From assembly GCF_003991155.1 (NCBI RefSeq), contig NZ_CP031293.1: a DNA stretch of 64,000 bases; one strand, 5' to 3'. A model generated the notes under the pieces. The model did no database searches and had not been told where the DNA came from. It was given only the letters and a program-made list of their open reading frames with translations. Below are positions 32,231-39,496 of the stretch, piece by piece (the first letter of the stretch is position 1; each line of letters begins with the position of its first letter). Origin of the DNA: Escherichia coli (lineage in GTDB: Bacteria; Pseudomonadota; Gammaproteobacteria; Enterobacterales; Enterobacteriaceae). The position numbers were made by a program, and so were the translations under genes.

Positions 32231-33439
32231 TCAGGCTGTCGCCTGAATCATTTCGGTGGGTTCCTGCTTCAACGGGCGGCCTGACTGCACCATCCCTCCA
32301 CAGGCAAGAACGGCGTGCCCCGCCGCTAAAATGTTACGAGCGCCATTTACATCGGCGTTCGCTGTATATCCACATACCTGGCATCTGAATTGACTTTGTG
32401 ACAGGCGATTTTCTTTCGCTGTATGACCACAGCACGTGCAACGCTGGCTTGTGTACGCTGGCGGAACAGCAAGCACCTGACCGCCACGCCAGAGCTGCTT
32501 GTACTCAAGCTGGCGGCGCATTTCATACCAGCCCTGATCCAGTACCGAACGGTTTAAACCTGATTTTGCCCGGACATTGCGTCCCGGCTGGCTGACCGTA
32601 CCCGCTGCTGACTTTGACATGTTGCTGACCTTCAAATCCTCAATGACTATCATTGCGTGGTTTTTGCTGACGGTCGTTGTGACTTTGTGAAGGTAGTCCC
32701 TGCGGATATTTGCGATACGGGAATGCAGTCGCTGTATTTTGCGTTTCTGCTTCTGCCAGTTATTGCTGAATTCGACCTTGCGGCTTAACTGTCGCTGAAG
32801 TCTCGCCAGCGTCTTCTGGTTTTTCTGAAAACTGTTTACAGGCTCAAAGACTGTGCCATCTGACAGCGTGGCGAGTTTAGCCACGCCAGCATCCAGCCCG
32901 ACCATTGATGCTGAAGGGTGAACCGGAGTGGATACTTCACTTTCTGTCTGAATACTGATGTACCACTTACCGCAGGACTGGCTGACAGTGACATTTTTCA
33001 CAACACCCGTGACCTGACGGCTGTTCCGGTAGCGCATCCAGCCCAGTTTCGGCAGAAAAATACGGCTGTTTTCCTGATCGAGCTTAACGCCCTGCGGGTA
33101 GCGGAATGCATCATTCTGTCCCCGCTTTTTGAATCGGGGAAAAGCAGCCCGCTTCTGGAAGAAGTTTTTGTAAGCCCGCTCAAGGTCTTTCAGTGACTGT
33201 TGCAATGGCTGTGAGGGCGAATCTTTAAGCCATTGCGTTCCAGTGGCGTTTTTCCACTCAACCAGCCAGGAAGCCATTTTCCCGTAAGGGATGTATTTAT
33301 TACCGGCCTCATGATTCTCATTCTGAAGCGCCAGAGCACGATTGAAAACGAAACGACATGCGCCTGCGAAGCGCCTCATTTCATGCTCCTGTTGACCACC
33401 GGGTCTTAACTGGAATTTAAATGCCTGTAGTCGTTTCAC
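32231..33439 (-). CDS. tnpB: TnpB (IS605 OrfB; RuvC-like RNA-guided endonuclease), apparently intact
   Basis: 402 aa; RuvC-like motifs [24 protein letters not shown] and [13 protein letters not shown], and a C-terminal zinc finger CTCCGH...CQVCGY. Confidence 0.85.
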
Positions 33440-33454
33440 AGGTCAAATTATATT

Positions 33455-33938
33455 TTGGTCTGTGAAAAAAGAAACCGATATCCGGCGTGGAAGGCATTGT
33501 GTTTTCCTGATGCATGTTCACCTGGTCTTTGTCCCAAATACCGACGCCAGATTTTTGACCATGACGCGACAGAAAAACTACGCACTTACTTTTCAAATGT
33601 ATGTGCTGATTTTGAAGCTGAACGGGTTGAAATGGATGGCGAACCAGATCACGTCCATTTGTTAATTAACTATCCTCCCAAACTGGCGATATCCAGTCTG
33701 GTAAACAGCCTCAAAGGTGTATCGGGTAGGTGACTGCGACGAGATCGACCAGATATTGCAGTCAGGTATTACTACAAAGGCGTTTTGTGGAGTCCTGGCT
33801 ATTTTGCCAGTAGCTGCGGAGGTGCGCCAATATCCGTCATCCGCCAATACATTGAACAACAGCAAACACCTGGTCAGGTGGAAAACCGCGCCTTATATCC
33901 CCGCCCTGAAGGACGGGGTTTTACGGCGCACCGGATAA
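33455..33938 (+). pseudogene. tnpA: tnpA (IS200-type HuH transposase) remnant with frameshift and in-frame stop
   Basis: Three pieces: HVHLVFV (frame from 33462), then PKYRRQIF...DHVHLLINYPPKLAISSLVNSLKGVSGR ending at TGA 33729, then LRRDRPDIAVRYYYKGVLWSPGYFASSCGGAPISVIRQYIEQQ after the stop. The conserved Tyr region (RQYIEQ) lies beyond the stop. Confidence 0.7.
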
Positions 33939-33945
33939 AGAAACC

Positions 33946-34344
33946 GTCAAAATCACTCAGCAAAACAGGCTGAATGCAAAATCCAGCAGTGGGGTTTACC
34001 TTCTGCCTGGAGCGAAAACACCGGCAAGACTGGAAAGCCAGATCGGTACTTTACGTATGTCGCTAGTGAATATTACGCATGATACAGATGGCACCACCCT
34101 GACGCTACGTATTCAGGGCGAGTCGAATGACCCCTTGCCCGCATTCAGCGGAACTGTTGAATATGGGCAAATTCAGGGAACAATAGACAACTTTCAGGAA
34201 ATCAATTTGCAGAATCAATTGATTAATGCCCCTGCCAGCGTCCTCGTCCCCAGCGATGTTGATATTCCGTTACAGTTAAAGGGGATTTCTGTAGAACAGT
34301 TAGACTTTGTACGTATCCACGACATTCAACCTGTTATGCAGTAA
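33946..34344 (+). pseudogene. yajI: yajI 3' fragment (C-terminal ~132 codons), separated from the 5' fragment by the IS
   Basis: Open frame ...TVKITQQNRLNAKSSSGVYLLPGAKTPARLESQIGTLRMSLVNITHDTDGTTLTLRIQGE...IHDIQPVMQ; with the 5' fragment it totals about 176 aa, a plausible full-length lipoprotein. Confidence 0.6.
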
Positions 34345-34642: not shown

Positions 34643-35527
34643 ATGAAAAAAACATTACTGGCAGCCGGTGCGGTACTGGCGCTCTCTTCGTCTTTTACTG
34701 TCAACGCAGCTGAAAACGACAAACCGCAGTATCTTTCCGACTGGTGGCACCAGAGCGTTAACGTTGTCGGAAGCTATCACACCCGTTTCGGACCGCAGAT
34801 CCGCAACGATACCTACCTTGAGTACGAAGCATTCGCTAAAAAAGACTGGTTCGACTTCTATGGTTATGCGGATGCGCCGGTATTCTTCGGCGGTAACTCC
34901 GATGCAAAAGGTATCTGGAACCACGGTTCTCCGCTGTTTATGGAAATCGAACCGCGTTTCTCCATCGACAAACTGACCAATACTGACCTTAGCTTCGGTC
35001 CGTTCAAAGAGTGGTACTTCGCGAACAACTACATTTACGACATGGGTCGTAATAAAGATGGTCGCCAGAGCACCTGGTACATGGGTCTGGGTACCGACAT
35101 CGATACTGGTCTGCCGATGAGCCTGTCCATGAACGTCTATGCGAAATACCAGTGGCAGAACTATGGCGCAGCGAACGAAAACGAGTGGGACGGTTACCGT
35201 TTCAAAATTAAATACTTTGTGCCGATTACCGATCTGTGGGGCGGTCAGCTGAGCTACATCGGCTTCACCAACTTCGACTGGGGTTCCGATTTAGGGGATG
35301 ACAGCGGTAACGCAATCAACGGTATTAAGACCCGTACTAATAACTCTATCGCTTCCAGCCATATTCTGGCTCTGAACTACGATCATTGGCACTACTCTGT
35401 CGTAGCTCGTTACTGGCACGACGGTGGTCAGTGGAACGACGATGCAGAACTGAACTTCGGCAACGGCAACTTCAACGTTCGCTCTACCGGCTGGGGTGGT
35501 TACCTGGTAGTAGGTTACAACTTCTAA
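34643..35527 (+). CDS. tsx: Nucleoside-specific outer-membrane channel Tsx
   Basis: ORF 34595..35527; signal peptide [25 protein letters not shown] begins at 34643; beta-barrel ending in ...[12 protein letters not shown]. Confidence 0.95.
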
Positions 35528-35564
35528 TTGTGAGAATGCCGGATTTCATATCCGGCATTTTTTA

Positions 35565-35912: not shown

Positions 35913-35999
35913 GAAAAGTTACCTGGATGAAATGTAGGGTTACGCGCAGTTTCCCAAGATGCGGGGATTTTCGCAATCCTGAGTCAAGAAATTCTCACA

Positions 36000-36314
36000 T
36001 TACCAGTGACGGCGAGGTTCCATCAGCTGATGAAGAATGCGCGCAATGAGAATGTCATCGACTCTTATAACGTAATAAACAGTGTGAAACCTAAATGCGA
36101 TCTTCTTTACCTCTGGAATCGCATCATAGTCTTGCCCTATCTCGGGCATTTGAGAGAGTGTATCCAGAAAAATGCCGAGAGAGTCGGTGTAGCGATCCGC
36201 CTGCTCCTCACCAAACTTTCCCAGCGTGTAGTCATAGATCCCTCTGAAATCTTCAACAGCTTTTCCGCTAAGCTTATACACGATGTTTTTGCTTCCTTTC
36301 TGCTGCGATATCAC
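36000..36314 (-). CDS. parE: ParE/RelE-superfamily toxin (type II TA)
   Basis: 104 aa from GTG at 36314; ...IVYKLSGKAVEDFRGIYDY...HTVYYVIRVDDILIARILHQLMEPRRHW matches the ParE pattern; overlaps upstream antitoxin gene by 41 nt. Confidence 0.7.
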   Translation of the reverse strand: MISQQKGSKNIVYKLSGKAVEDFRGIYDYTLGKFGEEQADRYTDSLGIFLDTLSQMPEIGQDYDAIPEVKKIAFRFHTVYYVIRVDDILIARILHQLMEPRRHW

Positions 36315-36516
36315 GAAGCGTCATCGAACTTTCACCGCTCTCAAGACCTTCAATAACAGCATTTCTGACAGCTTCATCCCTGGATTCTTGTTGTTCCAAT
36401 AGACGAAGCGCTGAACGCATTACTTCACTGGCCGAGCCATAACGACCAGACTGGACCATCCGTGTAATAAAACTATCTAATTGTTCGCCAACGCTTACTG
36501 AGGTAATTTTGCGCAT
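36274..36516 (-). CDS. parD: ParD-like antitoxin (ribbon-helix-helix)
   Basis: 80 aa MRKITSVSVGEQLDSFITRMVQSGRYGSASEVMRSALRLLEQQESRDEAV..., matching the ParD G-x-Y-x-SASE-V-x-R-x-A-x-R-x-L signature; RBS ggaga upstream. Confidence 0.7.
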   Translation of the reverse strand: MRKITSVSVGEQLDSFITRMVQSGRYGSASEVMRSALRLLEQQESRDEAVRNAVIEGLESGESSMTLRDIAAERKQKHRV

Positions 36517-36529
36517 AAGCGATCTCCAT

Positions 36530-36546
36530 GTATTAACTATTAATAC
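36530..36546. promoter_or_regulatory. Perfect palindrome upstream of parD (candidate operator, includes a -10-like tattaat)
   Basis: gtattaa-cta-ttaatac, 14-30 nt upstream of the parD start. Confidence 0.45.
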
Positions 36547-36666
36547 AAAGTATATGTCAGAACTCTTTCTACAACCAAACCGTATTCAGTTGCATGTGAA
36601 ACAGGCAAAAAAAACCGCAGCGCAAATACGCCACGGTTTTTTTAACAGAACGGATTTAAAACACCC

Positions 36667-37638
36667 TTAAGGCAGAATTGACGGCTGATCCGCCCCTTCT
36701 TTTTCCACTTTCTGCTGCAGCATGTGTTCGCGCTTCATACCCAGTTTCAGAGCCAGCGCCGATGCTACGTAGATGGAAGATGCAGTACCGATGGAAACAC
36801 CGATAAGCATGGTCAGCGAGAAGCCTTCCAGTACCGGACCACCGAAGAGGTACAGCATCAGGATAACCATCAAGGTAGTACCGGATGTGATCAAGGTACG
36901 GTGCAGCGTCTGGGTCAAGGACACGTTAAAGATTTCGTAAGGCGTACCGCGACGGATCTTGCGGAAGTTTTCACGAATACGGTCCGATACCACGATACTG
37001 TCGTTAAGCGAGTAACCGATAACTGACATCAACGATGCCACAATGGTCAGGTCAATCTCGATATGGAATAACGACAAAATACCCAGCGTAATGATAACGT
37101 CGTGCGCCAGCGCAATAACAACCCCTGCCGCCAGTCGCCACTCAAAGCGGAAACCTACGTACACGAGGATAGACAGCAGCGCCGCCATCAACGCCATCGC
37201 ACCGGTTTGCGCAAGGTCTGCCCCCACGCTCGGCCCGACGAACTCAATACGCTTCACTGCCGCATTCTGATTGGTGGATTCGTTAATCACCTTCAAGACC
37301 TGGCTGCCCAGCACCTGACCGCCGGTTTCGCCTTCAGCAGGCGGCATACGGACCATGATGTCGTGGCTGCTACCAAAGTTTTGCAGCATCGGCTCTTCAA
37401 AACCGGCTTTTTGCAATGCATCACGCATTACGTCAATTTCAGCCGGTTTTTCGAGCGTAATTTCAATAACCGTACCACCGGTGAAATCCAGCCCCCAGTT
37501 AAAGCCGCGCACGCCCATAATAACGATAGCGGCGATTAACAGCAGACCAGAGATGCCGAAAGCCCAGTAGTCCCAGCGCATAAAGTCATAGACTTTACGG
37601 CCGTGGTTTAGTTGTTCAACAGTATATTCCTGTGCCAC
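36667..37638 (-). CDS. secF: Protein translocase subunit SecF
   Basis: ORF 36667..37683; recognised protein begins (V)[38 protein letters not shown] at GTG 37638. Confidence 0.9.
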
Positions 37639-37648
37639 ATCGCACTCC

Positions 37649-39496
37649 TCAGATTGACAGCTTCTTGACGCGCTTGCCGCCATATAGCAGGTTTACGATG
37701 GCACGCGTACCGACAATCGCGGTAAACATCGACGTCGCCACACCGATACCGGTAGTAATCGCGAACCCTTTAATTGCCCCGGTACCCACTGCGTACAGGA
37801 TGGTGACTTTAATCAGCGTGGTGATGTTCGCATCGAAGATGGAACTGAATGCGCCACGATAACCTTCATCAATTGCCTGTTGAACAGTACGTCCGTTGCT
37901 CAACTCTTCTTTAATACGTTCGTTGATCAGTACGTTCGCGTCGACCGCTACCGCAAGGGTTAAGACGATACCCGCGATACCTGGCATACTCAGCGTTGCG
38001 CCTGGCAACAGCGACATAATACCGACGATCAAGATCAAGTTGGCAATCAGAGCACTGGTCGCAATCAGACCAAACTTCTTATAGAAGATGATCATGAACA
38101 GAATAGAAACCAGCAGACCGGCAAGGCAAGCCTCCAGCCCCTGCTCAATGTTCTGCATACCCAGGGTCGGGCCAATTGTACGTTCTTCAACAATCTGAAT
38201 CGGCGCGATCAACGCACCGGCACGCAGCAGCAGTGACAGCTGACGGGCTTCGTTCGGGTTGTTGATGCCGGTGATACGGAAGCTGTTACCCAGACGAGAC
38301 TGGATGTTAGCGATGTTAATCACCTCTTCCTGTTTCACCAGAACCGCACGACCGTTAGCATCTTTCTTGCCGCTGTCTTTGTACTCCACAAACAGGGTCG
38401 CCATCGGTTTGCCGATGTTGTCCTTGGTGAAGTTAGACATAATGTTGCCACCTGCGCTGTCGAGCGAGATGTTAACCTGCGGCTGGTTGTATTCGTCCTG
38501 GCTGGAAGTGGAGTCGGTGATATGGTCACCGGTCAGAATTACGCGTTTGTACAGCACAACCGGCTGACCTTCGCGGGTCTGTTTCACTTCAGAGTCGCCC
38601 GGTACGCGGCCGGATGCCGCAGCGGCCTGATCAACGTTGGTGTTTACCAGACGGAATTCCAGCGTTGCCGTCGCACCCAGAATCTCTTTCGCACGCGCGG
38701 TGTCCTGAATACCTGGCAGTTCAACAACGATACGGTCAGCACCCTGACGCTGAACCACCGGCTCCGCCACGCCAAGTTGGTTTACACGGTTACGCAGGAT
38801 ATTAATGTTCTGCTGCACCGCATATTCACGCGCTTCACTCAGACGAGCATCGCTCATTACCGCACGCAGCTGGTTGCTGCCCTGGCTGCTAATCACCAGG
38901 TCCGGATGGCGCTTGCTCAGATACGCAATGGCTTCATCACGAGCTTTAGCATCGCGGAAAGTGATGCTCAGGCCGTAGTTGTTTTCTTTACGAACGGTGG
39001 TATACGGGATGCCCTTTTCACGCAGGTCGCTGCGCAGGCTATCGATGTTTTGTTCCTGGAGTTTGCCAAGCGCGGTGTCCATATCCACTTCCATCAGGAA
39101 GTGAACGCCGCCACGCAGGTCAAGGCCGAGCTTCATCGGCTCAGCATGAATAGCTGCCAGCCAGCGCGGCGTTGCCGGGGCAAGGTTAAGCGCCACGACG
39201 TATTTGTCACCCATAACGCCCATTAATGCTTCACGAGCGCGCAGCTGGGTGTCAGTGGAGTCGAAGCGCGCAAGAATAGCGCCCTCTTCCAGTGCCACAG
39301 ACTTAGCAGTTATTTTTTCTTCTTGTAACGTTTTCTGGACCTGGATCAGCGTTTGCTCACTGGCGGCGACTCCGCGCGCACCAGTGATCTGAACAGCCGG
39401 ATCCTCACCAAACAGGTTGGGAAGCGCATACAGCAGACCGATGACAATCACCACGATCAGCATGACGTACTTCCACAAAGGATAACGGTTTAACAC
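37649..39496 (-). CDS. secD: Protein translocase subunit SecD
   Basis: 615 aa [43 protein letters not shown]... Confidence 0.95.

Follow-up and report, generated by a model that had tools for sequence, protein, structure and literature searches.

A chromosomal ParD/ParE toxin-antitoxin operon, very probably parD(EDL933)-parE3, between secF and yajD in some lineages of Escherichia coli

What are the two small genes that lie between secF and yajD in some strains of Escherichia coli, and how did they come to be there? The question was raised by a stretch of 64,000 nucleotides of E. coli DNA (contig NZ_CP031293.1), referred to here as the window, in which a preliminary description had pointed to a ParD/ParE-like toxin-antitoxin pair at this site. 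The locus is, with high confidence, a chromosomal type II ParD/ParE toxin-antitoxin operon that putatively represses itself and whose toxin probably poisons DNA gyrase, and it very probably corresponds to the published system parD(EDL933)-parE3. The pair as such is already known and annotated, and the mechanism proposed for it is conventional. The two genes are as follows.

36274-36516, minus strand: parD, 80 amino acids, ribbon-helix-helix antitoxin (RefSeq WP_001226938.1)
36000-36281, minus strand: parE, 93 amino acids, GTG start, ParE-family toxin (RefSeq WP_000277485.1)

The open reading frame (ORF) at 36274-36516, described beforehand as an 80-residue ribbon-helix-helix protein resembling ParD, proved to be just that, scoring 95.7 bits against TIGR02606 (cut-off 46.2, E 1.2e-27) and matching PF03693 at 1.9e-22. 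Its nearest relatives of solved structure are Vibrio cholerae ParD2 (7b22, 2.9e-19 over residues 1-69) and Caulobacter ParD1 (3kxe, 1.9e-13). Furthermore, the UniRef representative PARD_ECO57, whose name format we take to mark a curated Swiss-Prot entry, has the identical sequence. A GGAG Shine-Dalgarno sequence of parD is located at 36527-36524. The pair is not a ParDE system of the RK2 type: a nuclear magnetic resonance entry exists for RK2 ParD (PMC8251345), no RK2 chain is among the solved structures that the antitoxin matches at E≤1, and each of the 424 genomes in which both ORFs are intact carries the locus on the chromosome.

The toxin matches PF05016 over model positions 1-88 of 89 (i-E 7.9e-14), and its only significant relatives of solved structure are ParE toxins, namely 7ycs, 8c24 (Mycobacterium tuberculosis ParE1), 3kxe (Caulobacter ParE1) and 7r5a (V. 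cholerae ParE2). As these four structures are all matched over the full length, the fold of the toxin can be regarded as settled. Thus, the hidden Markov models (TIGR02606, PF03693 and PF05016) uphold the ParD and ParE family assignments, with scores well outside the range of chance.

The extent of the toxin gene required revision. The preliminary description had assigned to the ParE family a toxin of 104 residues overlapping parD by 41 nt; the family assignment stands, and the GTG-started ORF of that length exists (36000-36314, minus strand), but the gene itself encodes 93 residues from GTG 36281, the start used by RefSeq/PGAP, and overlaps parD by 8 nt (GTGTATAA). The PF05016 match begins at residue 13 of the longer ORF, and an AGGAAG Shine-Dalgarno sequence (36297-36292) is located 10 nt upstream of GTG 36281, with nothing comparable before GTG 36314. 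Homologous pairs adjacent to repA on plasmids of Yersinia ruckeri (pYRKMM821_1), Citrobacter freundii (pF1917-3) and Salmonella (pLG26p2) likewise possess a parD of 243 nt, a GTG-started parE and an 8-nt overlap. Their toxins align from residue 1 of the 93-residue form, all three share the GTG-Tyr-Lys-Leu start of the window gene, and in-frame stop codons occur 3-9 codons upstream of it, so that the additional 11 residues could not be translated there. The model with 104 residues and a 41-nt overlap was rejected on the grounds of the RefSeq start, the upstream stops in the homologs, the Shine-Dalgarno sequence and the onset of PF05016; it persists in an old annotation of IAI39 (CAR16410). The resulting layout, antitoxin first and bicistronic with closely coupled genes, is the same in RefSeq and in the three plasmid homologs.

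Upstream of parD, the sequence offers a candidate for self-repression.

36530-36546, no strand: palindrome GTATTAA-cta-TTAATAC, perfect 7-3-7 repeat of 17 bp, putative ParD operator
36549-36578, minus strand: candidate parDE promoter, read by hand, with TTGGTT (36578-36573), an 18-nt spacer and TATACT (36554-36549)
36560-36555 and 36537-32, minus strand: alternative candidate promoter, CTGACA, 17 nt and GTTAAT, the latter inside the palindrome

The perfect palindrome that had been noticed just upstream of the pair was found again at 36530-36546, with a gap of 2 nt on either side, to TATACT upstream and to the GGAG Shine-Dalgarno sequence downstream. It had also been said to cover a -10-like sequence; candidate -10 elements can indeed be read, but they are weak and fall below the threshold of a consensus scan. 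The palindrome is the sole match to itself in the window even when 2 mismatches are allowed (0.02 expected). Some perfect inverted repeat with 7-nt arms arises in about 4% of shuffles of the 91-nt spacer; taken alone the palindrome would be only modestly unlikely, and the comparison with homologs adds weight. It is invariant in four E. coli alleles, and the non-coding differences between these fall outside a conserved core (36530-36563) that comprises the palindrome and the candidate -10. At the aligned position the Y. ruckeri plasmid homolog has GTGTTAA-TAG-TTAACAC, in which both arms are changed and the symmetry is kept, and the palindrome of the C. freundii plasmid homolog has one mismatch. 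In the plasmid systems the related palindrome lies between promoter and Shine-Dalgarno sequence; a near-consensus promoter, TTGACA-17-TATCAT, occupies the aligned place and stops 1 nt short of the palindrome, which would put the operator over the transcription start. In V. cholerae, ParD2 recognizes GTA[C/T] motifs, which it touches with Lys, Thr and Ser residues of the N-terminal ribbon (PMC10776004). The N-terminus of the antitoxin studied here, MRKITSVS (MAKNTSIT in V. cholerae ParD2), keeps these DNA-contacting residues, and the palindrome ends in GTAT/ATAC, a suggestive fit with a role as ParD operator.

The target of the toxin has to be argued from its relatives. Its closest characterized homologs, ParE1 of M. 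tuberculosis and ParE2 of V. cholerae, are gyrase inhibitors (PMC10899793, PMC3001019), and F20, W25, Y33, H69 and H88 contribute to the toxicity of the V. cholerae protein (preprint 10.1101/2025.07.24.666505). The residues aligned to these five are Y18, F23, Y31, H66 and H84, four of them being identical or conserved as aromatics. By analogy, DNA gyrase is the probable target.

How does the pair relate to systems already described? O157:H7 strain EDL933 carries a pair at the same site and in the same architecture, with an identical ParD of 80 residues and cassette DNA that is 98.5% identical to that of the window. The O157:H7 toxin (WP_000277484.1) differs from the IAI39-type toxin in the window (WP_000277485.1) by E25D and I37T, and the few upstream substitutions lie outside the palindrome. 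By DNA similarity, O157:H7 genomes contain no second ParD/ParE of this kind. Because of this, and because of the curated name of the antitoxin, it is very probably the system published as parD(EDL933)-parE3, which Leplae et al. describe as 'tested as proof of concept' (PMC3141249). Toxicity and neutralisation are those reported in the literature for parD(EDL933)-parE3, not for the allele in the window. Among the three ParE toxins of O157:H7, cross-interaction is reported to be absent (Goeders and Van Melderen 2014, PMC3920263). A pangenome paper of 2025 counts WP_000277484.1 among the marker genes of O157, where it bears the automatic name 'ParE4' (PMC12472240). No functional paper on the locus emerged when the literature was searched with guessed locus tags, with RefSeq accessions and with yajD plus ParE, and exact look-ups for a curated toxin name returned only 'Toxin' or 'RelE/ParE family'.

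Several observations weigh against the reading of the locus as parD(EDL933)-parE3, an autorepressed operon with a gyrase-poisoning toxin. We infer the ParE3 identity from the name PARD_ECO57 and from DNA-level uniqueness in O157:H7. The consensus promoter scan found zero sites at ≥9/12 matches, and the conservation of the operator is partial: in the Salmonella plasmid homolog the palindrome is shifted and of another sequence, ATAGTT-AAT-AACTAT, with the core ATAGTTAATA in common. For the toxin, NCBIfam gave no meaningful family even at E≤10, and its gyrase-related homologs are about 25-30% identical as read from alignments, so that the target is extrapolated. The equivalent of V. cholerae Trp25 is Phe, the very substitution that weakened V. 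cholerae ParE2 (preprint 10.1101/2025.07.24.666505), and another ParE-fold toxin, ParE2 of O157:H7, is reportedly without gyrase binding (PMC8251345, PMC5086665). It is because of the last two points that we call the gyrase assignment probable and nothing stronger.

The same points favor a toxin with a ParE fold that acts on a target other than gyrase, as proposed for O157:H7 ParE2, the remaining toxin-antitoxin logic being the same. O157 ParE2 is stated in reviews and structure papers to show neither GyrA binding nor a translation block (PMC8251345, PMC5086665), the target of Caulobacter ParE1, which is among the closest solved homologs, had not been identified (PMC8251345), and the key Trp25 of V. 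cholerae ParE2 is replaced by Phe. However, comparison at E≤1 detects no similarity between the toxin and ParE2 of PDB 5CW7, whereas the toxin matches the gyrase-inhibiting ParE1 of M. tuberculosis and ParE2 of V. cholerae and retains four of the five toxicity residues of the latter in identical or aromatic-conserved form, which makes a non-gyrase target unlikely. Much less credible still is a RelE-type ribosome-dependent mRNA endonuclease in place of a ParE-type gyrase poison, even though PF05016 and the RefSeq name 'RelE/ParE family' span both activities (PMC11980606) and an older IAI39 annotation reads 'RelE family'. No RelE, YoeB, YafQ or HigB chain is found among the solved-structure matches of the toxin at E≤1, all four significant matches being ParE toxins; the partner antitoxin scores above the curated cut-off of the ParD family; and the C-terminal ILHQLME of the toxin matches the LHQxMD tail of the aligned ParE proteins. 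With no such solved chain at E≤1 and ParD as the partner, the pair is not of the RelBE, YefM-YoeB or DinJ-YafQ type.

The history of the locus can be read from its boundaries. On the minus strand the order is secD, secF, a hairpin with a U8 run, an AT-rich spacer, the palindrome, GGAG, parD, parE and yajD, and E. coli strain 2016C-3878 is 100% identical to the window in this region. The features that delimit the acquired segment are listed below.

36667-37638, minus strand: secF, 323 amino acids (RefSeq)
35912-35565, minus strand: yajD, an HNH-nuclease gene
35979-36666, minus strand: whole acquired cassette, 688 bp, delimited by filled/empty-site alignment, MG1655, outgroup spacers and GC content
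36608-36643, minus strand: terminator-like hairpin with U8 run, 23 nt after the secF stop codon, recognized by inverted repeat and RNA fold
35913-35999, minus strand: parE-yajD spacer, 87 nt, the last 66 nt of which (35913-35978) are ancestral yajD upstream sequence

The cassette, which measures 688 bp rather than the approximately 650 bp first estimated, begins right after the secF stop codon, ends 66 nt upstream of yajD and has a GC content of 43.6%, compared with 51% for the window. Between its terminator and yajD there are two genes only. Alignment with empty sites of the K-12 type and of ABU83972 revealed that it stands in for about 62 bp of the ancestral secF-yajD spacer, including the canonical secF terminator. 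The term insertion used in the preliminary description is therefore right in that the cassette is the derived state by outgroup comparison, but what happened is a replacement of native sequence and not a clean insertion. Direct and inverted flanking repeats and a target-site duplication were sought at the cassette ends and none was found, so that the acquisition cannot be attributed to a transposon, an integron or a site-specific mechanism. An Rfam search at permissive E-values gave no match in the cassette, the sub-threshold matches being confined to the tsx terminator. As a side observation, the mechanical ORF of secF (36667-37683, 338 codons) starts at an upstream ATG overlapping secD, and here the longest ORF overstates the gene of 323 codons given by RefSeq.

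The hairpin at 36608-36643 folds with -25.1 kcal/mol (z -4.45; 0/200 shuffles as stable); a simple consensus terminator scan missed it (zero sites), and it was recovered by folding. It substitutes for the native secF terminator, and termination of secDF is preserved since the cassette brings a strong terminator so close behind secF; with its symmetric A/T runs it could be bidirectional. The position directly behind the essential secDF genes had been singled out as notable, but there is no sign of functional coupling, the cassette having its own strong terminator. In the parE-yajD spacer, folding revealed no terminator-like structure (z 0.07), while K-12 has the canonical secF terminator there, and on this evidence transcription from the parDE promoter could run through into yajD.

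The pair is found at secF-yajD in 424-426 of 5,426 complete E. coli genomes (about 8%), including O157:H7 EDL933, always on the chromosome, always at the same site and in every carrier with the same architecture and RefSeq annotation (ParD, RelE/ParE). Alleles at ≥99% identity to the window (IAI39 type) occur in 77 genomes; most others are of the O157:H7 type at 98.4-98.5%, and a few are at 98.8% or 96.7%. The secF-yajD spacer of MG1655 consists of a bare 128 bp without a toxin-antitoxin pair, which confirms both the adjacency of the two genes in K-12 given in the preliminary description and the presence/absence polymorphism. A K-12-type terminator and no toxin-antitoxin pair were likewise found in Salmonella enterica arizonae (167-bp spacer), in a divergent Escherichia species representative (130-bp spacer) and, over the 76 nt visible, in E. 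albertii. Since these outgroups carry the K-12-type spacer, comparison of the sequences identifies the empty site as ancestral and the cassette as a gain within E. coli.

Near-identical copies of the toxin seem confined to E. coli, because a peptide-pattern scan with the toxin of 100,044 species-representative genomes gave 49 pattern matches and no relative. ParDE pairs carried by Enterobacterales plasmids, often as neighbors of repA, come nearest, with 56-63% identity for the toxin and 75-78% for the antitoxin; judged by these identities, no plasmid copy is close enough to have been a direct donor. No relative of the pair was found in 50,697 phage records, and PADLOC returned 0 families for either protein at E≤0.01.

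Two neighborhoods of the pair or its homologs deserve mention in their own right. In E. coli E105 (NZ_CP071375.1) an IS3-family insertion sequence (IS) lies between parD and parE (1245-2458 of the compared stretch); it clips the 3' end of parD, leaving 231 nt, and cuts off the intact toxin gene from the operon promoter. Insertion of an IS between parD and parE is a typical way of silencing the toxin. On the C. freundii plasmid pF1917-3 the ParDE homolog (1848-2711 of the compared stretch) is immediately followed by a reverse-transcriptase-family gene and an opposite-strand helix-turn-helix (HTH) regulator, possibly a retron or another defence-type module.

Both genes are under purifying selection. 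Among the four alleles, which diverge by ≤3.3% at the DNA level, 11 of the 13 polymorphic coding sites are synonymous, and the two non-synonymous changes are E25D and I37T of the O157:H7 toxin, ParD being identical in all four; the crude pN/pS is 0.05 (P=3e-6 against neutrality). These data bear on the notion of a decaying, non-functional remnant that is passively carried in some lineages. Chromosomal toxin-antitoxin copies are often under relaxed selection (PMC3920263), and in E105 the IS3 element severs the toxin from its promoter. Yet the ORFs are intact in 424 genomes, the substitution pattern departs strongly from neutrality, ParD shows no change between alleles whose DNA diverges by as much as 3.3%, and no allele differs in the palindrome, the Shine-Dalgarno sequence or the -10 candidate, all of which renders decay extremely improbable. 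A different proposal would make anti-phage abortive infection, or the exclusion of ParDE plasmids (anti-addiction), the main role of the pair in place of stabilisation of the locus. Relatives 56-63% identical adjoin repA on many Enterobacterales plasmids, and a part in defence or anti-addiction is widely discussed for toxin-antitoxin systems in general (PMC3920263). We regard such a role as rather improbable, given the absence of PADLOC matches and phage-borne relatives, flanking genes (secF and yajD) without neighboring defence genes, and the reported lack of cross-neutralisation among O157:H7 ParE systems (PMC3920263).

Several known systems can be compared with the pair. ParDE2 of V. cholerae (7R5A, 7B22) provides the closest solved antitoxin, with the same Lys/Thr/Ser ribbon, and a toxin aligning over the full length (5e-4). 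Its operon is antitoxin-first, as is the pair in the window, and is characterized by autorepression through GTA[C/T] motifs and by gyrase poisoning. In contrast, it resides in the chromosome II superintegron, its operator consists of three GGTA boxes about 10 bp apart instead of one 7-3-7 palindrome, its toxin has Trp25 where the window toxin has Phe, and the 6:2 repressor stoichiometry is a V. cholerae feature. ParDE1 of Caulobacter (3KXE) and of M. tuberculosis (8C24) contain the best-scoring named solved toxins (about 1e-7, end-to-end) and ParD partners of the same family, but belong to distant hosts, with toxins about 30% identical as read from alignments and a Trp at the alpha1-alpha2 loop where Phe is found here. 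The repA-adjacent systems differ in being plasmid-borne with a near-consensus promoter, whereas the pair in the window is chromosomal and its promoter weak. Finally, PaaR2-PaaA2-ParE2 of O157:H7 prophages (5CW7) shares the ParE fold of its toxin, the species and the literature with the pair, but has a third regulator gene, an antitoxin without DNA-binding domain, a prophage location and a ParE2 reportedly without gyrase binding. Having two genes, a ribbon-helix-helix antitoxin and no match to 5CW7 ParE2 at E≤1, the pair in the window is not of the PaaR-PaaA-ParE type.

We infer operator binding, the promoter and the gyrase target, and with them the operon would work as follows. A weak sigma-70 promoter would drive a bicistronic parD-parE transcript, on which translation of the toxin would be coupled to that of the antitoxin through the 8-nt overlap. 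ParD, alone or with sub-stoichiometric ParE, would bind the 17-bp palindrome, which separates the -10 element from the ribosome-binding site, and thereby repress the operon, and its disordered C-terminal half would wrap ParE and neutralise it. Should the supply of ParD fail, free ParE would most probably poison DNA gyrase, stalling replication and stopping growth. The low-GC cassette was acquired within E. coli, swapping the native secF terminator for its own. More speculatively, since the native secF terminator was removed and no terminator follows parE, yajD might be under ParD/ParE-controlled read-through, with derepression co-inducing YajD in carriers such as O157:H7, or else the toxin with Phe for Trp might have a non-gyrase target; this we consider a distant prospect.

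Some features near the locus are independent of it. The convergent tsx-yajD spacer (35528-35564) measures 37 bp in the window and in ABU83972 and 176 bp in MG1655 and O157:H7; the segment of about 139 bp that makes the difference, probably a REP-type element, comes and goes without regard to the presence of the toxin-antitoxin cassette. The Rfam model of the small RNA SorX gave a sub-threshold match at the convergent terminator of tsx and yajD (35500-35563) (24.5 bits, gathering score 46.6), most likely a chance match to the terminator hairpin. Further along, an IS200/IS605-family element annotated in the identical RefSeq record (32231-33871) comprises an intact TnpB/InsQ RNA-guided endonuclease gene (32231-33439, minus strand) and, beside it, a frameshifted and truncated tnpA pseudogene (about 33447-33871). 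A DUF3251-domain gene at 33934-34344, presumably occupying the position of yajI in K-12, is annotated as an N-terminally truncated pseudogene; as it directly adjoins the IS200/IS605 remnant, the arrangement suggests that the IS insertion destroyed it.

The locus leaves the current understanding of ParDE systems unchallenged, and its importance lies mostly in annotation. It is a lineage marker, which O157:H7 and the IAI39-type lineage carry and K-12 lacks, and a tidy case of a toxin-antitoxin cassette that replaces a housekeeping terminator while supplying its own. Moreover, for the study of ParE toxins, its toxin naturally carries Phe in place of the alpha-hairpin Trp on which V. cholerae ParE2 critically depends, and K-12, being without the cassette, is a convenient test host.

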